The position numbers and the translations under genes are program-made. The notes beneath the pieces were generated by a model. It was not told the origin of the DNA. It did no database searches and was given only the letters and a program-made list of their open reading frames with translations. A stretch of DNA of 64,000 bases from a virus (Duplodnaviria > Caudoviricetes), in the IMG/VR virus record IMGVR_UViG_3300011116_001007. One strand, 5' to 3'. Of the stretch, positions 14,139 to 44,543 are shown one piece after another. Every line of letters begins with the position of its first letter. Within the stretch, counting starts at the first letter, position 1.

Positions 14139-15605
14139 ATGCCAATAATATCTAGACCGGTAGGGTATACAAATTCATTACAAACACTCACGGTATATCC
14201 GTTGATTCCTGACGCTCAACTTACTGCACATCTCTGGGGCGGTGGTGGTGGTGGCGGCGGGAACGATTCTGGCCCCGGAGGCGCAGGAGGTGGTGGCGGG
14301 TTTTCGATTGCCACAATTGCTTGCAACACTGCTGATGTTATTACACTGGCAGTGGGCAGCGGCGGTGGTGGCGGGCTCAGCGGCGGCGGAGTAAGTGGAG
14401 GATCAGGAGGATCTAGCTATGTTGGGTATAGCGTATTCAACACAAGACAATTGGCTGGAACAAATGGATTGATTGCAGTGAGTTTACCTTACGCCTGGAG
14501 CAATTTCATGAACGCCTATGCTGTATGGAATGCCAATGGTGCTTACACGCTTGATGTCTCTACCACTATTTCTGTGCCATTCACTGGTGTATTTGTTTTG
14601 CAGACAGCATTTGATGACGATGGCACAGTATACATAGATGGGATTGCTGTGGCATCTTCCAGCGGAAGTTATAACGGTTCAAGAATTAACAATATTACAA
14701 TAACCAGCGGTTCTCATACTTTACGTATTGTAGGTTATAACTCCGGTGGAGGACCCGCTGGAGTGGCTGTATCGATCAACAGTGGGGCTAGTTTTTCAGG
14801 TGCTCCGGGCGGCAATTCAGGATCACGAGGTGCTAGCGGTAGTGGTGGTGGTGGCGGCGGGGCAACTGTTTTATTACAAAATGGGCTATTGCAGGGCGTG
14901 GCTGCCGGCGGCGGTGGCGGCGGCGGGGCAGGTAATCCTAGCCCAGGTGGCAGCAGTCCCGGACCCAACGGCCAAACTACCACAGGGTTCAATGGTGAAT
15001 CAGGAGCAGGTCATCCAGGTGACGGCGGCGCTGGCGGAGGTGGTGGCGGAGGATACAATGGCAGCACTGGCGGAGGTGGCAATGGTGGAGCATATGGCGG
15101 GTGGCCGGGTGCTAGCGATACTGGTGGACAAGCAGGAAACCCTGGCGCCAGCTGGAGTTTTGCCTATCCAAATGGATTTAATCCCAGTGGTCGAACACCC
15201 GGCGGACAGTCAGGAATCTCAGTACCAGCTGGAGTTGGACAAGGTGGGCGATCAAACGGCGAACGTGGGGGCAATGGATATGCAGTGATATACATGAATG
15301 TTCCTGGGGTGTTTGTAAATCAAGCTGGTACCTATTATGCTACCAAGGAAGTTTATGTGAATGATCAAGGCACTTGGAAAATCACAAATGCAATTTATAT
15401 CAAACAAAATGGGGCCTGGACCCAGGTGTCCGGCCAACAAACTACTAATTTTGAAACTATCAGCGGAGATTGGGGTATGGTTCCGCGGTCCAGTCCATAC
15501 GTTTACTCTCCACCACCGCAACCAAGTGGAGGTGGTGGACCAGGCAGGGGAGAAGGCAGCAGCGGCGTCGCTGGTGGCGGCTTTGGCGGTGGTGGCGGCG
15601 ACTAA
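14139..15605 (+). CDS. Glycine-rich fibre/adhesin protein with a PA14-like domain
   Basis: Poly-Gly tracts flank a central [13 protein letters not shown]...GSHTLRI segment. Confidence 0.6.
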
Positions 15606-15922
15606 ACTGAAAAACTACTGCCGCAGCCGCAGGTGCTGACTGCATTGGGATTTTTTATCACAAAGCTGGCACCCATGGCATCTTCTTTGTAATCAATGTC
15701 TGATTCTTGTAGATATTGCATGCTCATGGCATCTACTACCACTCGCACTTCTTCGTAGTTGAAATCAAAATCATCTTCGTTTTGAATTTCATCAAACGTG
15801 AATCCATAACTGAATCCTGAACAACCGCCGCCTTGCACAAACACACGCAGCATGAGCGCAGGGTTGGCTTCTTCTGCGATCAGCTCACGCAGTTTGCTCA
15901 CAGCAGCAGGTTTGAGATTCAT
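15602..15922 (-). CDS. erpA: Fe-S cluster insertion protein ErpA/IscA (HesB family)
   Basis: [17 protein letters not shown] and C-terminal CGCGSSF; start MNLKP overlaps the SOD stop (TAATG). Confidence 0.92.
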
Positions 15923-16464
15923 TATAGTCTTTCGTTGCACACATCCCAATCAATGATCTTCCAGATATTGTTGAGATATGCTTCTTTGTCGCTTTGATAA
16001 TCCAGGGCCCAGGCATGTTCCCACCAGTCTACTAGCACACAGATGTCGGTGCGTACGGCATGATTGGCGATGGTCTTGATTGCTCCGCTGGTGCTGAGAT
16101 ACACCCATCCAGAGCCTTGTATTTTCATAGCAGTTTCTTTGAATGCTATTTTGAAATCTTCGTAGGTTTTAAAATGTTCTTCTATGAGTGCGAGTACTGC
16201 ACCACGTGGTCGATTGGCACCTTTGGGAGCCCTAAGCTGAGGGAAAAACTTATTGTGTAAAAAACTGCCAGCACGATTAAAATCTGCATTGCCTTCTCCT
16301 GCATTGTATCGCTTGGCATAGCCCTTGGCGAGATGTTCAAAATGGTAATCAATTGTGGCAGCACTCATCACCGGTGCCAGGTCCTTGGGACCATAAGGTA
16401 GTGGAGTAGTTTCTAGTTTGGCCGGTCTGGTGCTGGCTTCCAGTAAGTCTATGTGTTCACGCAT
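15922..16464 (-). CDS. sod: Fe/Mn superoxide dismutase (compact form)
   Basis: LPY...IDYH, FLHN, GSGW, DWWEHA: all four metal ligands present. Confidence 0.88.
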
Positions 16465-16472
16465 ACAGGTAT

Positions 16473-16691
16473 TTATTTTCTTCTAACAATACGCCCTCTA
16501 GTGAGATCGTATGGTGTGAATTCCACTTCTACCCGATCTCCCAGCAGCACTTTGATATTGTTGGTACGCATTCGCCCACTGAGATGTCCCAGCACTGTAT
16601 GCTCAACATTGTCTATTTTGACGCGGAACATCGCAGCAGGTAAAATGTCTTCAACTGTTCCCTCCATTTTGAGAGTTTCTTCTTTGGCCAT
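16473..16691 (-). CDS. infA: Translation initiation factor IF-1
   Basis: MAKEE...EG.V..ILP..MFRV...[32 protein letters not shown]. Confidence 0.95.
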
Positions 16692-16697
16692 ATGCAA

Positions 16698-17147
16698 TTA
16701 CTTAGTGAAGTTGATCTCTGTTGTGATCTTCTTCAATCGATCATAGCGGAAACTGCGCCAGGCAGCCTGATCTAAATCGTAAACTCGCTGGGTCACAGGA
16801 TCAGGTTCTTTGCGCGGTTTTTTATTTTCGGCCAGTGTGTCTAGTCCATCTGGGTTAGCAGTAGAGGATTTGAAAATTGTGCCTACAGGTGCTGGCGGAA
16901 TTCTGCTGCTGTCCAGAGTGCATCGCATGTCACGTGTGGTGCCATCTGATTTCACAAACTGCACAGTGACTTCGCTGGTGGTCAACAGGCCCTTGACCCA
17001 AGCCCTTATTTCCGCTTGGCCTGCGGTGTCAGCTTCTTGATACTGCGTTCCAGGTGCATTTTTCAGCAAGCGAAACACTTCTGCTTTTTCCCAATCCATC
17101 AAATCCATAAGTTCTCCTCTAAAAGTTAATAAACGTTTTTTAATCAT
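16698..17147 (-). CDS. WYL_2/DUF2693-like (SH3-fold) T4-type protein
   Basis: VTVQFVKSDGTTRDMRCTL...VYDLDQAAWRSFR. Confidence 0.65.
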   Translation of the reverse strand: MIKKRLLTFRGELMDLMDWEKAEVFRLLKNAPGTQYQEADTAGQAEIRAWVKGLLTTSEVTVQFVKSDGTTRDMRCTLDSSRIPPAPVGTIFKSSTANPDGLDTLAENKKPRKEPDPVTQRVYDLDQAAWRSFRYDRLKKITTEINFTK

Positions 17148-17500
17148 GTCCATCTCAATGCTGCTATTGTAGCATACTTGGCATACTTTTGACTAATCTT
17201 TATGGTTAGACGATTGTCAGTAGCATCACGATCAGCCATGCCCCAATCCCAATCCCATTTTTGACGACCGACATGTTCTTCTAACCATGGGCGATAGTGA
17301 TCGTTTGGGTCACTGCTATCGACAGATGTTTTACTACCGTCTGGCATCCAATCTATATCTACCCACCCCCTGGGCCATGCTACATTGATTACAACTCCGG
17401 GCATAAATCGCCACCAGAGATGTTCTTTGATATTCAATCCGCAGGGCATCCAATAGTTTTGTCTAAAGAAGAAAAGACCTTTAATCTCACTCTTGCTCAT
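17144..17500 (-). CDS. LRW-array small protein 1
   Basis: Ends YATIAALRWT; ATGA-coupled at both ends. Confidence 0.75.
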   Translation of the reverse strand: MSKSEIKGLFFFRQNYWMPCGLNIKEHLWWRFMPGVVINVAWPRGWVDIDWMPDGSKTSVDSSDPNDHYRPWLEEHVGRQKWDWDWGMADRDATDNRLTIKISQKYAKYATIAALRWT

Positions 17501-17742
17501 GTCCACCTCAATATAAACCATGTTGCCAACTTAGGATCTTTAACTGTGATAGTGGGCACATATTTTGGTCCCAAGTCACGAGGGTCAAACGCTTCGTGTG
17601 GCTGTGGATAAACACGCTCACGCTTGTAGAACCAGGCATAATCGTAATTGTCAACAAGGCCAGTCATATTGCCTTTGCCCACATGTTTGTTTAACCATTC
17701 GGTACACCCTTCGGGCACACCTTGACGAAATTCTACTCTCAT
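17497..17742 (-). CDS. LRW-array small protein 2
   Basis: Ends LATWFILRWT. Confidence 0.75.
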   Translation of the reverse strand: MRVEFRQGVPEGCTEWLNKHVGKGNMTGLVDNYDYAWFYKRERVYPQPHEAFDPRDLGPKYVPTITVKDPKLATWFILRWT

Positions 17743-17990
17743 GTCCACCTCAATAAAAAGAATGTAGCATCACTACCTTCTTTGAAAGCAATCTTGCTGT
17801 CCCAACAATGACATTCAATTTTAGTTTCTTTTAACCAATCTTTCACATTACTAGACACACTAGGAATGTACCATGGATCTGGTATTTTAACAATAGTCCA
17901 ACCCATAGCATTGTATAGTATTTCGGTATCAATACTATCAGCTAAATCTTTAGTTAGTTTATTAAGATATTTGTGTTCTATATCCATCAT
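17739..17990 (-). CDS. LRW-array small protein 3
   Basis: Ends DATFFLLRWT. Confidence 0.75.
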   Translation of the reverse strand: MMDIEHKYLNKLTKDLADSIDTEILYNAMGWTIVKIPDPWYIPSVSSNVKDWLKETKIECHCWDSKIAFKEGSDATFFLLRWT

Positions 17991-18202
17991 AGCCACCTCA
18001 ACAAGAACCATGCAGCATGTTTTTCATCGCGGAACTCGACCACACCTTCGCCAAGATACCTCCACCCATCCTCAGACTGGCCACCGAATTGTTCAAAGCA
18101 CCAATCTATACAGGGACTCCATCCTTTATAATTTGAAGCGATTTTGGGATCATTGGGTACCGGCACACTGACTATATGCCATTCTGGCTGCGGGTATTTC
18201 AT
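17987..18202 (-). CDS. LRW-array small protein 4
   Basis: DWCFEQFG...FRDEKHAAWFLLRWL. Confidence 0.75.
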   Translation of the reverse strand: MKYPQPEWHIVSVPVPNDPKIASNYKGWSPCIDWCFEQFGGQSEDGWRYLGEGVVEFRDEKHAAWFLLRWL

Positions 18203-18399
18203 GACCACCTCAACAGAAACCAATCGTGGTTCTTTCTAACTTGAAACACATAGCCTGTGCTGCCTGAACTCAATAGAAAAGGATTGCAATCATTTTTATA
18301 CATCCAACTAGTAATTTCGTGCCAATCTTCTGTTTTCATACAACGGTAAACTGGATGATTGTTCCAACCTGGATATGATGTTTTCTCTACTTTTGTCAT
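18199..18399 (-). CDS. LRW-array small protein 5
   Basis: Ends HDWFLLRWS. Confidence 0.75.
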   Translation of the reverse strand: MTKVEKTSYPGWNNHPVYRCMKTEDWHEITSWMYKNDCNPFLLSSGSTGYVFQVRKNHDWFLLRWS

Positions 18400-18638
18400 G
18401 ACCATCTCAATGTAAAATGTGTGGCATCTTTTGCGTCCGAGAAATAGAATGTACTACCGGCCCACTCATTTTTTTGCAAACAACAATCACGCCTAGTATG
18501 TTCACTAACCCACCTAACCATTTCCGCAACTTGATCACACCAATCAGTCCAATCCATTCCCGGGCGTACTGTAAGATGTACCTTGTGATAATTCTTGTCA
18601 ATATCACGTTTTTCTTTTCTACGCTGTTTGCTATTCAT
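18396..18638 (-). CDS. LRW-array small protein 6
   Basis: Ends FSDAKDATHFTLRWS. Confidence 0.75.
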   Translation of the reverse strand: MNSKQRRKEKRDIDKNYHKVHLTVRPGMDWTDWCDQVAEMVRWVSEHTRRDCCLQKNEWAGSTFYFSDAKDATHFTLRWS

Positions 18639-18829
18639 GCGCCCCACTTCAGCAAGAACAACATCAGGTGCTTTTGCTTTTTAAAGTAAAAATAGCCGTT
18701 GGCTCTTTGGTGTTCACCAAATTTAAAAGTCTTAGTACACCAGCGATCTGCCTCAAGCCACTTATTGCCTTGGACAATTTTGTAGGGCATCTTGACTCGT
18801 TTGATACCGTAGTCAACAATCAGGGTCAT
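18635..18829 (-). CDS. LRW-array small protein 7
   Basis: RWCTKTF...LMLFLLKWGA. Confidence 0.75.
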   Translation of the reverse strand: MTLIVDYGIKRVKMPYKIVQGNKWLEADRWCTKTFKFGEHQRANGYFYFKKQKHLMLFLLKWGA

Positions 18830-19056
18830 GACCACCTCAACAAAAACAATGTAACATACTTTTCTTTATACAAGTATAACCAGCCACCGAGATAATCCCA
18901 ATGACGGTCATGCGTATGTGTAATAAATCCATTGGGTCCAAAAGTATCCCAGCACCATTCATGCACTTGTTTTATATTACTGCCCGGAGTAGTAAGGCTA
19001 AAATGCACATCCCATCTATCTAACTCGGGACGATGTATAATCTTGGGCAAAGTCAT
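18826..19056 (-). CDS. LRW-array small protein 8
   Basis: EWCWDTFG...YVTLFLLRWS. Confidence 0.75.
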   Translation of the reverse strand: MTLPKIIHRPELDRWDVHFSLTTPGSNIKQVHEWCWDTFGPNGFITHTHDRHWDYLGGWLYLYKEKYVTLFLLRWS

Positions 19057-19349
19057 GACCACTTCAACAAAAACAAAGTGCGGTCCCGTTCATCACGGAA
19101 CCAATACTTGTAATTACTGCCAACCCAACGAGCGTGTTCTACTGACCAATCAGACTCTCCCATTGTATCTATTACCCACTGGTCCATGCCCCACCACTCT
19201 GCCTCAGTGTAGTTTGATGGTCGAATCCAATAGGGCCATTTAGGTTGATTTTCAGCATAGCCAGTTTCAAGGCGTTTCACGTTGATTTCATCTATCCATT
19301 GTGTTGCCATTTTGGTTATCTGTTGTGGAGTCAATATAGCGTTACTCAT
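19053..19349 (-). CDS. LRW-array small protein 9
   Basis: Ends FRDERDRTLFLLKWS. Confidence 0.75.
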   Translation of the reverse strand: MSNAILTPQQITKMATQWIDEINVKRLETGYAENQPKWPYWIRPSNYTEAEWWGMDQWVIDTMGESDWSVEHARWVGSNYKYWFRDERDRTLFLLKWS

Positions 19350-19738
19350 CGCCGCATCTTGGATATGTCAATTGCTTCTTCGTCGCTGAACACAGGCACA
19401 GCATTGCTCTTGTGCATGGTAGCAATGCCTTTGACCTTGGTGCCTGTATACACTTTGGCAGGTGCCAACGCTGCCACACCACCGCCGGTGCCAAGACTGG
19501 GAATGTGAGCAGTACCTGCACGATCTGTGGCACCAGTCAAATTGTAAACCAAGGGTTCTGCTGCTAGAGCACGACGACGCTTCTTTTCTTCTGCAGCCAC
19601 ACCTTGACGTTTCAGCAGTTGTTTCCAGTCAGCTTCGAGTTCACGAGCCTTGCGAGCTTCAGCAGCATTACGGTATTTGAATTTACCCTTCTTCTTGCCA
19701 TTGAGGCTCAGCGCAGGGCCGCACATGTGCATGGTCAT
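19346..19738 (-). CDS. Conserved T4-like-phage hypothetical protein
   Basis: C-terminal YTGTKVKGIATMHKSNAVPVF; AGGAG SD. Confidence 0.75.
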   Translation of the reverse strand: MTMHMCGPALSLNGKKKGKFKYRNAAEARKARELEADWKQLLKRQGVAAEEKKRRRALAAEPLVYNLTGATDRAGTAHIPSLGTGGGVAALAPAKVYTGTKVKGIATMHKSNAVPVFSDEEAIDISKMRR

Positions 19739-19764
19739 AAAGATCTCCTGGTAGTCATGTGCTT

Positions 19765-19793
19765 ATTATAGCACAGCTCAAATTACCGGTCAA
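19765..19793 (-). promoter_or_regulatory. Sigma70-type early promoter
   Basis: TTGACC-N17-TATAAT. Confidence 0.85.
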
Positions 19794-19796
19794 CCG

Positions 19797-20099
19797 TTAT
19801 TTGAACAGGATCAGCGCCATCAAAACGGCTTGCACAATAAATCCCGAGCCCACAGTGATGATATTCAACATGTCTTTGAGCACCACCGCTCGCATGAACA
19901 ACAAGACCAGTCCAGCCCACAAGAACAATATCACGTCCAAACTAGGTGTTCGATCACTGAGTCCTGTCATCAGAGCCAGCAAAGTGGGCACAGTAGCAGC
20001 ATGTAACACTATGGCTGATAACCATCCTAAAGTTTCTGCACTCAATCTGGGCAAGTGTTCACCCAACCAGTCAATAATAGAACGAGATGCAAATATCAT
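19797..20099 (-). CDS. Small multi-TM membrane protein
   Basis: Three hydrophobic segments; ATGA-coupled to SleB. Confidence 0.65.
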   Translation of the reverse strand: MIFASRSIIDWLGEHLPRLSAETLGWLSAIVLHAATVPTLLALMTGLSDRTPSLDVILFLWAGLVLLFMRAVVLKDMLNIITVGSGFIVQAVLMALILFK

Positions 20100-20668
20100 G
20101 TTTTTTCTCCGTAAAAGATATGATGTCCAATTTTCTCTAATTTGGGTTTGTTCCAACCCGGATTCACGTAGTCAGCGTGATAGTACAGTGCGTTTTTCAG
20201 TCCCGGCAAGCGGAATCCTTCCAACAACACTTTTTTGGCCACTTCCTCACTTTCCCTCCACAGGGGTCGGTGTATGGCTTTGCCAGGATGTCCTGATTCA
20301 CAGAACCAGCTGAATTGGCACACTACTTTTTCGTAGAATACGTTTTTCTGATATACCACTGCACATACAGAATTGGCAAAACGTCCAGAGTCCACACGGT
20401 TCAGAGTGACCTGCGCCACACCCACCTTGCCTTCAAACGGTTCGTTGGCAGCTTCCCAATAGATGTTTCTTGTGAGGCATTCCAGTTCTCGGGTGCGTTG
20501 TGCTGCACTGATATAAGTTGCGGATAGACCATCTGGTTGTTCACGCAGGGCATTGAGTCGATTATTGGTCACCACGTACACCACATAGACCACTGCAATC
20601 AGTCCTAGGACTTTGAGTAGATATGAACTGTAGCGTTGTGCCAAAAGGGATATTTGATTTGCTTTCAT
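20096..20668 (-). CDS. Cell wall hydrolase, SleB/Hydrolase_2 family, with N-terminal TM
   Basis: CLTRNIYWEA.NE...GKVGVAQVTLNRV...CQFSW...YYHADYVNP.W...GHHIFY. Confidence 0.9.
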   Translation of the reverse strand: MKANQISLLAQRYSSYLLKVLGLIAVVYVVYVVTNNRLNALREQPDGLSATYISAAQRTRELECLTRNIYWEAANEPFEGKVGVAQVTLNRVDSGRFANSVCAVVYQKNVFYEKVVCQFSWFCESGHPGKAIHRPLWRESEEVAKKVLLEGFRLPGLKNALYYHADYVNPGWNKPKLEKIGHHIFYGEKT

Positions 20669-28557: not shown

Positions 28558-28803
28558 TCACAATGAAAATTTCTGCAACACTCGTCCGCTTTCTTCAAAG
28601 CCAGTTTCGTGCAGTGAAATTTCCATCAGTTCGTGCAACAACACCTGTTTCAGGGCATGCACTTCGTAGCGTTCTTTTGCAGTGAGTTCTTCAAACCAAG
28701 ATTCAAATTCTTCCTGGCTTTGTAACTGCCACATGGTGTCCAACAATCGGCATTGACGCACGGTAAGGTCGGTGATGCTTATGTTATTCATGGTCAACTC
28801 CAT
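28558..28803 (-). CDS. Hypothetical protein
   Basis: About 78 aa ORF. Confidence 0.65.
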   Translation of the reverse strand: MELTMNNISITDLTVRQCRLLDTMWQLQSQEEFESWFEELTAKERYEVHALKQVLLHELMEISLHETGFEESGRVLQKFSL

Positions 28804-28991
28804 TTCAATTGATAAAACGTTGCTAGTGCAGGATCTCGAAAATGAAATATCACAGTTCGATGACGGTTAATGTCATCGGGCGGCACGTATGTCCATGTGA
28901 AATCATATCCCTGAATCAGTCCCGACTGCTCCAGTTGAGTCTTGAGCTCTAGACCCTGCTGTGGACTCATGTTGAAAGTGATTGAATGCAT
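28794..28991 (-). CDS. Dispersed LRW-family small protein
   Basis: Ends FHFRDPALATFYQLKWS. Confidence 0.65.
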   Translation of the reverse strand: MHSITFNMSPQQGLELKTQLEQSGLIQGYDFTWTYVPPDDINRHRTVIFHFRDPALATFYQLKWS

Positions 28992-44099: not shown

Positions 44100-44543
44100 A
44101 TGCCTATTTATAAATCTACTCATACTTTTCCCTATGTGTATCTTTGTCAGGAAAAAGATTCACCGTATTTCTATATCGGATATCGATACGCAAATCGAGT
44201 GCCGTCATCTGAAGATTTTGGAAAACATTATTTTACATCAAACAAGTATGTTAAAGAAAACTTTGACAAGTTTGATCATACCATAGTAGCAGAGTTTTTT
44301 GACAAAAAAGATGCATACACATTTGAATCTGAACTGATCAAAGAATTGAACTCAAAATATCTGCTGAATGCCCAGCGGATAGGGCGGCTCACGGGCACAT
44401 CATACAAACCCAAGATAACAGAAGAAGTTATTTCAAAAACTTGTGCTTTGCCCGAATGCAACAAGATTTTCACCAACTGGCGGTCAAAATGCTGCTGTAT
44501 CTCGCATAGTAAAAAATACGCAGGTATGCGACGTCACCAATAA
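44100..44543 (+). CDS. GIY-YIG (Seg-like) free-standing endonuclease
   Basis: YVY...FYIGYR...YFTS...AY.FE; Cys-rich C-terminus; opposite strand to neighbours upstream. Confidence 0.7.
   Translation: MPIYKSTHTFPYVYLCQEKDSPYFYIGYRYANRVPSSEDFGKHYFTSNKYVKENFDKFDHTIVAEFFDKKDAYTFESELIKELNSKYLLNAQRIGRLTGTSYKPKITEEVISKTCALPECNKIFTNWRSKCCCISHSKKYAGMRRHQ

Follow-up and report, generated by a model that had tools for sequence, protein, structure and literature searches.

The 64,000-nucleotide stretch of tailed-phage DNA analysed here and called the window throughout (IMG/VR record IMGVR_UViG_3300011116_001007; Duplodnaviria, Caudoviricetes) carries on its minus strand, between positions 17144 and 19349, nine consecutive open reading frames (ORFs) of 64–118 amino acids (aa) that are chained to each other by ATGA stop/start overlaps. 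These genes, numbered g1 to g9 from high to low coordinates (Table 1), all encode proteins with a C-terminus of the F-x-L-[RK]-W type (AALRWT in g9) followed by one or two residues, and every stop codon is the TGA of an ATGA that also carries the next start, including the junctions at both ends of the array, where a 130-aa gene runs into g1 and g9 runs into a WYL_2 gene. An initial annotation, made from the letters alone, had described nine small ORFs with L(R/K)W ends and ATGA overlaps, together with eight copies of a junction repeat, and this description is confirmed: exact matches to the pattern TTGARRTGGNNATGA occur eight times in the window and all eight lie at array junctions, where 0.01 occurrences would be expected and none of 100 shuffled sequences reached eight. 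What that annotation did not contain, and what is now the best-supported mechanistic point about the locus, is that the junction repeat doubles as a Shine-Dalgarno (SD) site.

The last sense codons at the junction read TTG AGG TGG nnA and are followed by TGA, which corresponds to the peptide Leu-Arg/Lys-Trp-x-stop. The codons for Leu-Arg-Trp spell the SD-like sequence GAGGTGG, whose GAGG, the core of an SD site, ends 5 nt before the overlapping ATG. Codon choice at this site was counted in two sets of loci, the first made of family members in loci fetched with the junction pattern, after exclusion of the junctions that match the search pattern, and the second of 79 loci retrieved through degenerate patterns of the g9 peptide, a route that is blind to the DNA of the junctions. 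In the first set AGG represents 60% of the codons at the Arg/Lys site, as against 4% of the Arg/Lys codons elsewhere in the same genes, and Leu is encoded by TTG in 59% of the cases at the site compared to 23% elsewhere. Moreover, AGG reaches 66–84% when the next start overlaps, but 27% when the next ATG lies more than 15 nt away (Fisher p=1e-5). For the second set, AGG accounts for 79–88% of the Arg codons with an overlap, 38–50% without it and 8% elsewhere (p=1e-5). Synonymous codons at the site depart from the usual usage of these genes, and their choice tracks the overlapping neighbour.

It could be argued that conservation of the junction is a mere by-product of a conserved protein C-terminus, with no role in either translation or recombination. 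The protein side of this argument has a basis, as the [RK]W tail is kept in 71–79% of the members without a downstream overlap, compared to 85–89% of those with it (546 unique locus members), and Phe or Tyr occasionally takes the place of the Trp, in keeping with a core aromatic residue. A conserved tail, however, leaves the codon choice unexplained: across two independent sets of loci AGG goes from 27–50% without an overlap to 66–88% with it, in genes where it is otherwise infrequent among Arg codons, so that we consider the by-product explanation very improbable. Since the motif persists without an overlap and the codon bias tracks the overlap, both the protein fold and an RNA signal constrain the letters of the junction. 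Members lacking an overlapping downstream gene have tails 4–8 aa longer, and a free C-terminus right after the Trp is therefore not required; a role of the LRW tail as a C-terminal degron, or through its free carboxylate, is weakened by the same observation. Altogether, the anatomy of the array and the dual-coding junction are well supported, and we hold them with high confidence.

The nine proteins show low pairwise identity (16–37%), and their relationship was followed with profile hidden Markov models, as the initial annotation had proposed. A profile of 111 sequences from outside the window, run against the 947 ORFs of the window, recovered g1 to g8 with E values from 2.6e-22 to 4e-6 and gave an E of 0.09 for g9, and leave-one-out profiles from the window copies recovered g1 to g8 at E 4e-8 to 0.017 but not g9 (E 1.8). 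The latter gene is reached by hhalign, where an alignment of the g9 group meets the family profile, of which g9 itself is 1 of 120 rows, with a probability of 96% and an E of 2e-9 over the last 49 columns. On these profile comparisons g1 to g8 are homologous and g9 is a divergent member, which carries an extra N-terminal part of about 60 aa; in g8, a long insert separates the first helix from the last strands. Proteins of the g9 type form 641 homologue clusters, the best 120 at 62–75% identity, and those of the g1 type gave most matches of the first database search, at 51–76% identity. The first helix and the third strand each have an invariant or near-invariant Trp; the Phe of the fourth strand and the F-x-L-x-W of the last helix are conserved to the same degree. 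Trp makes up 5–10% of the nine proteins, compared to 1.5% in the long ORFs of the window, and their isoelectric points (pI) spread from 5.1 to 10.0 with net charges from -3 to +9 (family median pI 6.5); DNA-mimic anti-restriction proteins of the Ocr, ArdA or Arn type were considered and rejected, as these would be strongly acidic. Outside the array, a solitary 58-aa ORF at 28794-28970 (-) ends in FYQLKWS, with the next ATG two bases past its TGA, and gives a weak match to the profile of outside sequences (E 0.009) that is confined to the final strands and helix; this ORF could represent a tenth member, truncated or very divergent.

AlphaFold models were obtained for g2 and g9, the two most different members. 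The model of g2 (pLDDT 83.7) shows the order strand, strand, helix, short helix, strand, strand, helix, and that of g9 (pLDDT 74) repeats this core order with an additional strand and a helix at the N-terminus. The two models thus share one basic fold, a small beta-beta-alpha-beta-beta-alpha sandwich whose hydrophobic core is conserved and whose loops and N-terminal extensions vary, which backs the layout of Trp helix, beta-hairpin and terminal helix that had been read from the sequences. The fold search proposed along with that layout yielded no significant structural match in any library: Foldseek found nothing in the PDB at E≤0.001, BFVD and the Atlas returned only unnamed clusters of uncultured tailed phages, among which the matches of g2 and g9 overlap, AFDB gave three unnamed entries, the unnamed entries of the three libraries being viral wherever a taxon was given, and weak rows for DUF1801, SUI1 (TM 0.54) and Imm51 also appeared. 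An exhaustive structural comparison with VIA-align, for which Z scores below 8 are rated as common by chance, reached best values of 5.5 (g2) and 5.2 (g9), with KH, DCoH and eIF1 in the top rows. Like the family models, DCoH, eIF1/SUI1 and KH are two-layer sandwiches of four strands and two helices, and DCoH and eIF1 also have the beta-beta-alpha-beta-beta-alpha order in common with them; the comparison stays at Z 5.1–5.5 and 4–10% identity, without sequence similarity or common motifs. The likeness is probably one of common architecture, not of membership.

The family is much larger than the window suggests. A profile of the nine genes matched 753 proteins in a word-indexed protein database, and an exhaustive search with it gave at least 1,225 representatives of 50%-identity clusters (E≤0.001). 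Among the 150 representatives listed, all measure 53–158 aa and the match reaches the C-terminal end in nearly all; the tails of 147 of them are nearly all of the F-x-L-[RK]-W type. No name beyond 'hypothetical protein' was found in any source searched, and literature searches returned no description of the family. The nine genes had no significant match in Pfam-A, PHROGs v4, NCBIfam or PADLOC, 120 diverse members scanned singly had no family matched by more than one of them, and the profile found nothing better than E 0.33 among PDB sequences. Likewise, tblastn with g1, g2, g9 and a consensus-like member gave no match in 50,697 GenBank phage records, and no relatives of g9 were found in the 185,579 species genomes of GTDB.

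At least 109 stretches of viral contigs match one junction variant, and these stretches plus a few other loci hold at least 579 members by the family profile, as many as 21 of them sharing a strand within a 10-kb locus. In three complete genomes of 344–382 kb we find 20, 26 and 7 family matches, most of them clustered within a single stretch of about 10 kb, and 32 loci fetched through a g9-type protein with full flanks contain 1–17 members within 6 kb; the nine copies of the window are an ordinary array of middling size. As all three complete genomes encode a Gp23-type capsid protein and a T4-type terminase, the carriers are T4-like giant phages. In other phages the arrays lie in unrelated contexts, next to AAA/DUF2201, NT5C or an Eco57I-type enzyme. 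The g9 protein is on record on a contig of 308,552 bp, and the DNA of the window is present in freshwater viral, river and lake metagenomes.

How the array changes with time is best seen in L001, a 348-kb contig syntenic with the window for NAD synthase, a hydrolase, the 129/130-aa gene, the array, WYL_2, IF-1, superoxide dismutase (SOD) and an Fe-S protein, with flanking proteins at 62–86% identity. Its array has five genes, four of which are counterparts, in this order, of g1 (73%), g3 (48%), g9 (62%) and g7 (65%); the fifth lacks a counterpart in the window, as do g2, g4, g5, g6 and g8 in L001. The genes g1, g7 and g9 are at 62–73% identity between the two phages, and the flanking infA, WYL_2 and 130-aa genes at 62–68%. 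Moreover, contigs from two other studies, one an RNA library and the other DNA, join an alternative end of g1 directly to the ATG of g4, without g2 and g3, and are anchored by flanks of 52 and 40 letters; other joints seen in reads have flanks of just 21–27 letters, may only reflect the repeat and were not counted. The content of the array thus varies between close relatives with breakpoints at the junctions, and exchange of cassettes by recombination between junction repeats is probable. Judged from these identities, the paralogs are old lineages, each of them conserved, and what changes fast is the set of cassettes and their order.

These results qualify the view taken in the initial annotation of an expanded, diversifying family of small effectors, each presumed to have its own host target or host allele, to which no function could be assigned. 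The expansion was understated: the clusters number at least 1,225, a single genome can have as many as 26 copies and, in the comparison of copy number that had been suggested, aquatic phage contigs contain 1–26 copies. No function is assigned to the family in any library searched, nor did a housekeeping role emerge. Diversification, on the other hand, applies to the presence and order of the cassettes rather than to the paralogs, of which g1, g7 and g9 are about as conserved as the flanking genes.

Transcription of the array would start at the site where the annotation had put a promoter, upstream of the 130-aa gene. There, TTGACC-17-TATAAT with an upstream TG is the best sigma-70-type site in positions 15400-20400 and lies about 25 nt before that gene. 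From the -35 box to the ATG, the window and L001 are nearly identical (19730-19800 (-) and L001 5610-5680), whereas the DNA upstream of the -35 box is unrelated and the protein encoded downstream is at 64% identity. A working promoter is supported because promoter and leader are conserved while the upstream DNA and the downstream protein diverge. The T4-type late motif TATAAATA is found in the window only at 44105 and 56760, with no occurrence in or near the array. Given the sigma-70-type site and the absence of this late motif nearby, early transcription by the host polymerase is likely, as far as consensus and conservation can tell. In L001, a radical-SAM gene and a 101-aa gene without counterparts in the window are inserted upstream of the promoter.

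Table 1. Features of the array and its immediate surroundings. Gene lengths are counted from the ATG of each ATGA; profile E values refer to the profile of sequences from outside the window; a94, a63 and a84 are array genes of L001.
Feature	Position	Strand	Evidence
Promoter-like site, sigma-70-type, TTGACC-17-TATAAT, TG before the -10 box	19765..19793	-	11/12 positions match
First operon gene, 130 aa, basic, unnamed	19346..19738	-	TGA overlaps ATG of g1
g1, 98 aa, C-terminus FLLKWS	19053..19349	-	profile E 7.6e-14; 73% identity to L001 a94
g2, 76 aa, C-terminus FLLRWS	18826..19056	-	profile E 3.4e-15; AlphaFold pLDDT 83.7
g3, 64 aa, C-terminus FLLKWGA, pI 10	18635..18829	-	profile E 1e-14; 48% identity to L001 a63
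g4, 80 aa, C-terminus FTLRWS	18396..18638	-	profile E 7.8e-11
g5, 66 aa, C-terminus FLLRWS	18199..18399	-	profile E 4e-6; leave-one-out E 0.017
g6, 71 aa, C-terminus FLLRWL	17987..18202	-	profile E 2.6e-22, top-scoring member
g7, 83 aa, C-terminus FLLRWT	17739..17990	-	profile E 1.3e-8; 65% identity to L001 a84
g8, 81 aa, C-terminus FILRWT	17497..17742	-	profile E 8.8e-8, match in two pieces
g9, 118 aa, C-terminus AALRWT, divergent	17144..17500	-	profile E 0.09; hhalign probability 96%
Eight 15-nt junction repeats TTGARRTGGNNATGA	17144..19067; low coordinates 19053, 18826, 18396, 18199, 17987, 17739, 17497, 17144	-	exact pattern matches
Variant g3/g4 junction CTGAAGTGGGGCGCATGA, longer	18635-18652	-	sequence
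WYL_2 gene (Sm-like SH3 barrel), start from last junction repeat	16698..17147	-	PF10902 E 9.6e-10
IF-1-like gene (infA)	16473..16697	-	ORF; L001 counterpart has PF01176, 62.5% identity

Immediately downstream of the array come WYL_2 and infA, as first described, and the IF-1-like gene is probably the last of the early unit. Further away we find, on one side, an Fe/Mn superoxide dismutase, an Fe-S assembly protein and a tail-fibre gene and, on the other, a cell-wall hydrolase and NAD synthase. The 130-aa gene at the head of the unit had no match in Pfam, NCBIfam or PADLOC. Among GenBank phages, the region has a single DNA match, between a 106-nt stretch of this gene and hypothetical gene 114 of Delftia phage PhiW-14 (74.5% identity). 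The 860-aa tail-fibre gene is followed directly, at 14139-15605 (+), by a gene for a glycine-rich protein of 488 aa that contains long runs of GGGGG and gave no match in Pfam.

A different kind of evidence comes from relatives of the array genes in other phages, where about one in ten members has an N-terminal extension of at least 35 aa. Four classes of extension recur. The first corresponds to the N-terminal part of the major capsid protein gp23 (PF07068, E 1e-13 to 1e-7; phrog_138, E 1e-10), matches the capsid genes of 1,190 phage records by tblastn, maps to the highly conserved N-terminal segment of gp23 (residues 74-128 in Aeromonas phage 31) and is 30–56% identical to residues ~45-100 of the carriers' own capsid protein. 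We take this segment to contain the equivalent of the Gol region, presumably at about residues 93-122 of T4 gp23. The second class corresponds to an internal part of the capsid protein (residues ~151-210; hhalign probability 93%, E 4e-7), and the third, terminase-like, aligns weakly but in constant register with the Q-motif and Walker-A segment (residues 54-93) of the carriers' large terminase. A query with the terminase fragment had no match among GenBank phages. The fourth and commonest class, in 15 loci, is an extension of about 50 aa (RFL..HGC.TWREY..., e.g. L015 3851-4009), whose parent gene was sought without success in GenBank phages and the three complete carrier genomes.

The capsid chimeras are found at L119 1423-2153, L135 1432-3082 (minus-strand reading coordinates), L116 1429-1845 and L117 1453-1806, two records having both capsid pieces ordered as in the capsid gene, and the terminase-like members at L042, L053, L077, L013 and L114 (proteins P0179, P0193, P0195, P0219 and P0275). 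The domain is of a single sub-type (FSRAKWY ... PDAWSRW) in members fused to capsid and to terminase pieces alike, a picture that resembles a swap of N-termini. All these chimeras sit within arrays, away from the real capsid and terminase genes, which are intact elsewhere in the complete genomes, and an origin by gene splitting or introns was rejected on these grounds. In the window itself, residues 1-36 of g7 align with capsid residues 184-225 in the register of the second class, with a weak score (hhalign probability 29%, E 6e-4) and no finding by Pfam, and one bridging sequence is common to the g7 set and the second-class set; the N-terminal helix of g7 may derive from the major capsid protein. 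The loop HPDKPDAWSRW of the shared sub-type (L042, L053, L077) resembles HPDRxEEW in terminase residues 245-274 (L129-L131; E 0.005-0.07, three sequences), and the family profile does not match terminase. Among cultured phages, Vibrio phage 2.275.O (MG592671.1, 349 kb) has the capsid N-terminus closest to the chimera fragment (49% identity, E 1e-8), and no copy of the family was found in it.

Altogether, the best explanation of the locus, to which we assign a probability of about 0.55 as a whole, is that the array is the early operon of an uncultured freshwater T4-like giant phage of roughly 308 kb, made of dual-coding cassettes for protein-binding modulators. Host RNA polymerase would probably start at the 19793-19765 promoter and produce one mRNA for the 130-aa gene, the nine paralogs, WYL_2 and IF-1. 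The codons that end each paralog, Leu-Arg/Lys-Trp-x, read (T)TGAGGTGG-nn-ATGA, and the same letters would finish the last helix, supply a strong SD site and hold the overlapping stop and next start, so that a terminating ribosome could restart at once on the next gene, as textbook ATGA overlaps behave. Every cassette would thereby bring the translation signals for whatever follows, and recombination between junction repeats could insert, delete or rearrange cassettes while the operon stays expressed. The products, small, soluble and Trp-rich, would owe their respective partners to their variable parts, the targets being host proteins, for take-over or counter-defence, or the capsid and packaging proteins of the phage itself. 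Observation covers the anatomy, the family, the modelled fold, the dual-coding junction and the variable copy number; we infer that ribosomes re-initiate, that junctions recombine, that expression is early and that the products bind proteins. That the proteins are protein-binding modulators made early in infection is a best guess, which we advance tentatively and at less than even odds.

Several points weigh against this explanation. The promoter is backed by a match to the consensus and by its conservation in a single relative; the only contigs from RNA libraries across the region belong to relatives and may stem from carried-over DNA, for which reason they were rejected as proof of transcription. 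No recombination event has been caught directly at a junction, most joints seen in reads having flanks of 21–27 letters. The matches to solved proteins are at noise level (Z 5.2–5.5) and silent on a binding function, and the terminase similarity of the third class is weak per sequence (E 0.016-0.4; PHROG terminase E 0.009-0.08). The idea of binding modulators itself draws on size, early position, variable loops and fusion partners.

Other functions can be envisaged for the same genes. The chimeras invite the proposal that the arrays are batteries of early display proteins, decoys or sponges whose scaffold would present conserved pieces of the phage's own late proteins to abortive-infection sensors, occupying or blunting what otherwise reacts to the full-length forms, and thereby pre-empting Lit, CapRel or Avs-type systems or engaging EF-Tu. 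The displayed pieces would be the capsid N-arm (probably the Gol equivalent), the capsid E-loop with the spine helix and the Walker-A region of terminase; g7, perhaps a shortened member of the capsid-helix class, would be one of the displaying proteins, and members without a recognisable fragment would target other defences. Array members elsewhere do carry capsid residues ~45-100 or ~151-210 or a terminase-like Q-motif/Walker-A piece, and these lie inside arrays and not beside the real genes. Moreover, the parent proteins are known to be sensed in bacteria: the Lit protease is triggered by the Gol region, described as the most conserved part of gp23, which binds EF-Tu (PMC3014915), and among the Avs systems the large terminase is recognised by Avs1-3 and the capsid protein, jointly with EF-Tu, by Avs7 (PMC13581612). 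A trigger peptide made early could, however, equally set off the sensor, eight of the nine window genes are without a recognisable fragment and the link of g7 is weak (probability 29%), and the capsid-gene order of the fragments in two records may mean that they are the remains of a broken-up duplicate gene. On balance, we consider that the arrays serve this purpose to be unlikely.

A role as RNA- or ribosome-binding proteins that tune the translation of host or phage messages draws on the structural rows described above, since KH domains are the best solved match of both models, DCoH and eIF1/SUI1 tie with them for g2 (within 0.1 Z), and further eIF1/SUI1 and ribosomal-protein matches appear for both models at Z 4.4–5.5, in addition to the SUI1 row at TM 0.54. 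The array also precedes the Sm-like WYL_2 and infA directly, both in the window and in L001, and surface tryptophans could stack on bases. All these scores are nevertheless within the range common by chance, the order of elements differs from that of KH, pI values of 5.1-10 do not point to a uniformly basic surface, and the neighbours of the arrays in other phages are unrelated, which leaves such a role distinctly unlikely. The members could finally be packaged in the capsid and injected with the DNA, as the internal proteins of T4 are, with the capsid pieces as targeting handles: they are small and variable between relatives, and some relatives bear N-arm or spine-helix segments of the capsid protein through which co-assembly with the shell would be possible. 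A sigma-70-type promoter ahead of the array, no T4-type late motif in it or near it, the lack of a shared N-terminal targeting peptide and the absence of a capsid-like segment from most members make this extremely improbable. The reading of the products as early protein-binding modulators remains the one we prefer.

With regard to translation, the closest known system is the coupling found in the E. coli trp operon, a textbook case in which an ATGA stop/start overlap is combined with an SD sequence inside the upstream gene. The array shares with it the ATGA overlap and an SD-like sequence 5 nt upstream within the preceding coding sequence. Unlike in trp-type coupling, the SD of the array is written into the Leu-Arg-Trp motif that defines the protein family, it recurs at each junction in arrays that reach about 20 genes, and its codons are chosen according to whether a gene lies downstream. 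The junction is in this sense a clean natural case of one sequence under two selections, those of a protein C-terminus and of a ribosome-binding site, and by making the genes self-expressing cassettes it helps to explain how arrays grow and shrink.

The resemblance to the Gol/Lit/EF-Tu and Avs systems lies in the relatives, which carry pieces of two proteins that such sensors recognise, either the highly conserved N-terminal segment of gp23 or a terminase-like Walker-A; unlike the actual triggers, the pieces form part of accessory-array genes, in fusion with a small unrelated domain, and in the window only g7 is possibly, and weakly, of this class. The chimeras on one scaffold provide a concrete hypothesis on counter-defence or assembly control that can be tested at the bench, for which the domain, tiny and well modelled, should be easy to express and solve. 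If the pieces were indeed displayed, the plug-and-play junction would let phages swap countermeasures quickly.

As for gene organization, small early genes of uncharacterised role make up much of the unexplained share of large phage genomes, and this family, among the larger of such small-gene families, is in none of the curated libraries searched. The hyperplastic regions of T4-type phages and their PeSL (promoter-early stem-loop) elements, non-coding motifs of promoter plus terminator between unrelated genes, offer the nearest precedent (PMC2839356; PMC4122927). In both cases we find blocks of small early genes of unassigned function, whose content varies between close relatives with syntenic flanks, and, as in the PeSL, a short conserved boundary sequence thought to guide modular exchange (PMC2839356; PMC4122927). 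Unlike in the PeSL blocks, the array has no intergenic DNA but 4-nt overlaps, a single strong promoter-like site and genes that are paralogs of one family; its junctions are not among the terminator-like sites found, and its boundary repeat codes for the last helix while also holding the SD, the stop and the start. The family is new and very large, and the system is an unusual form of the variable small-gene blocks known in T4-like phages, not a new kind.

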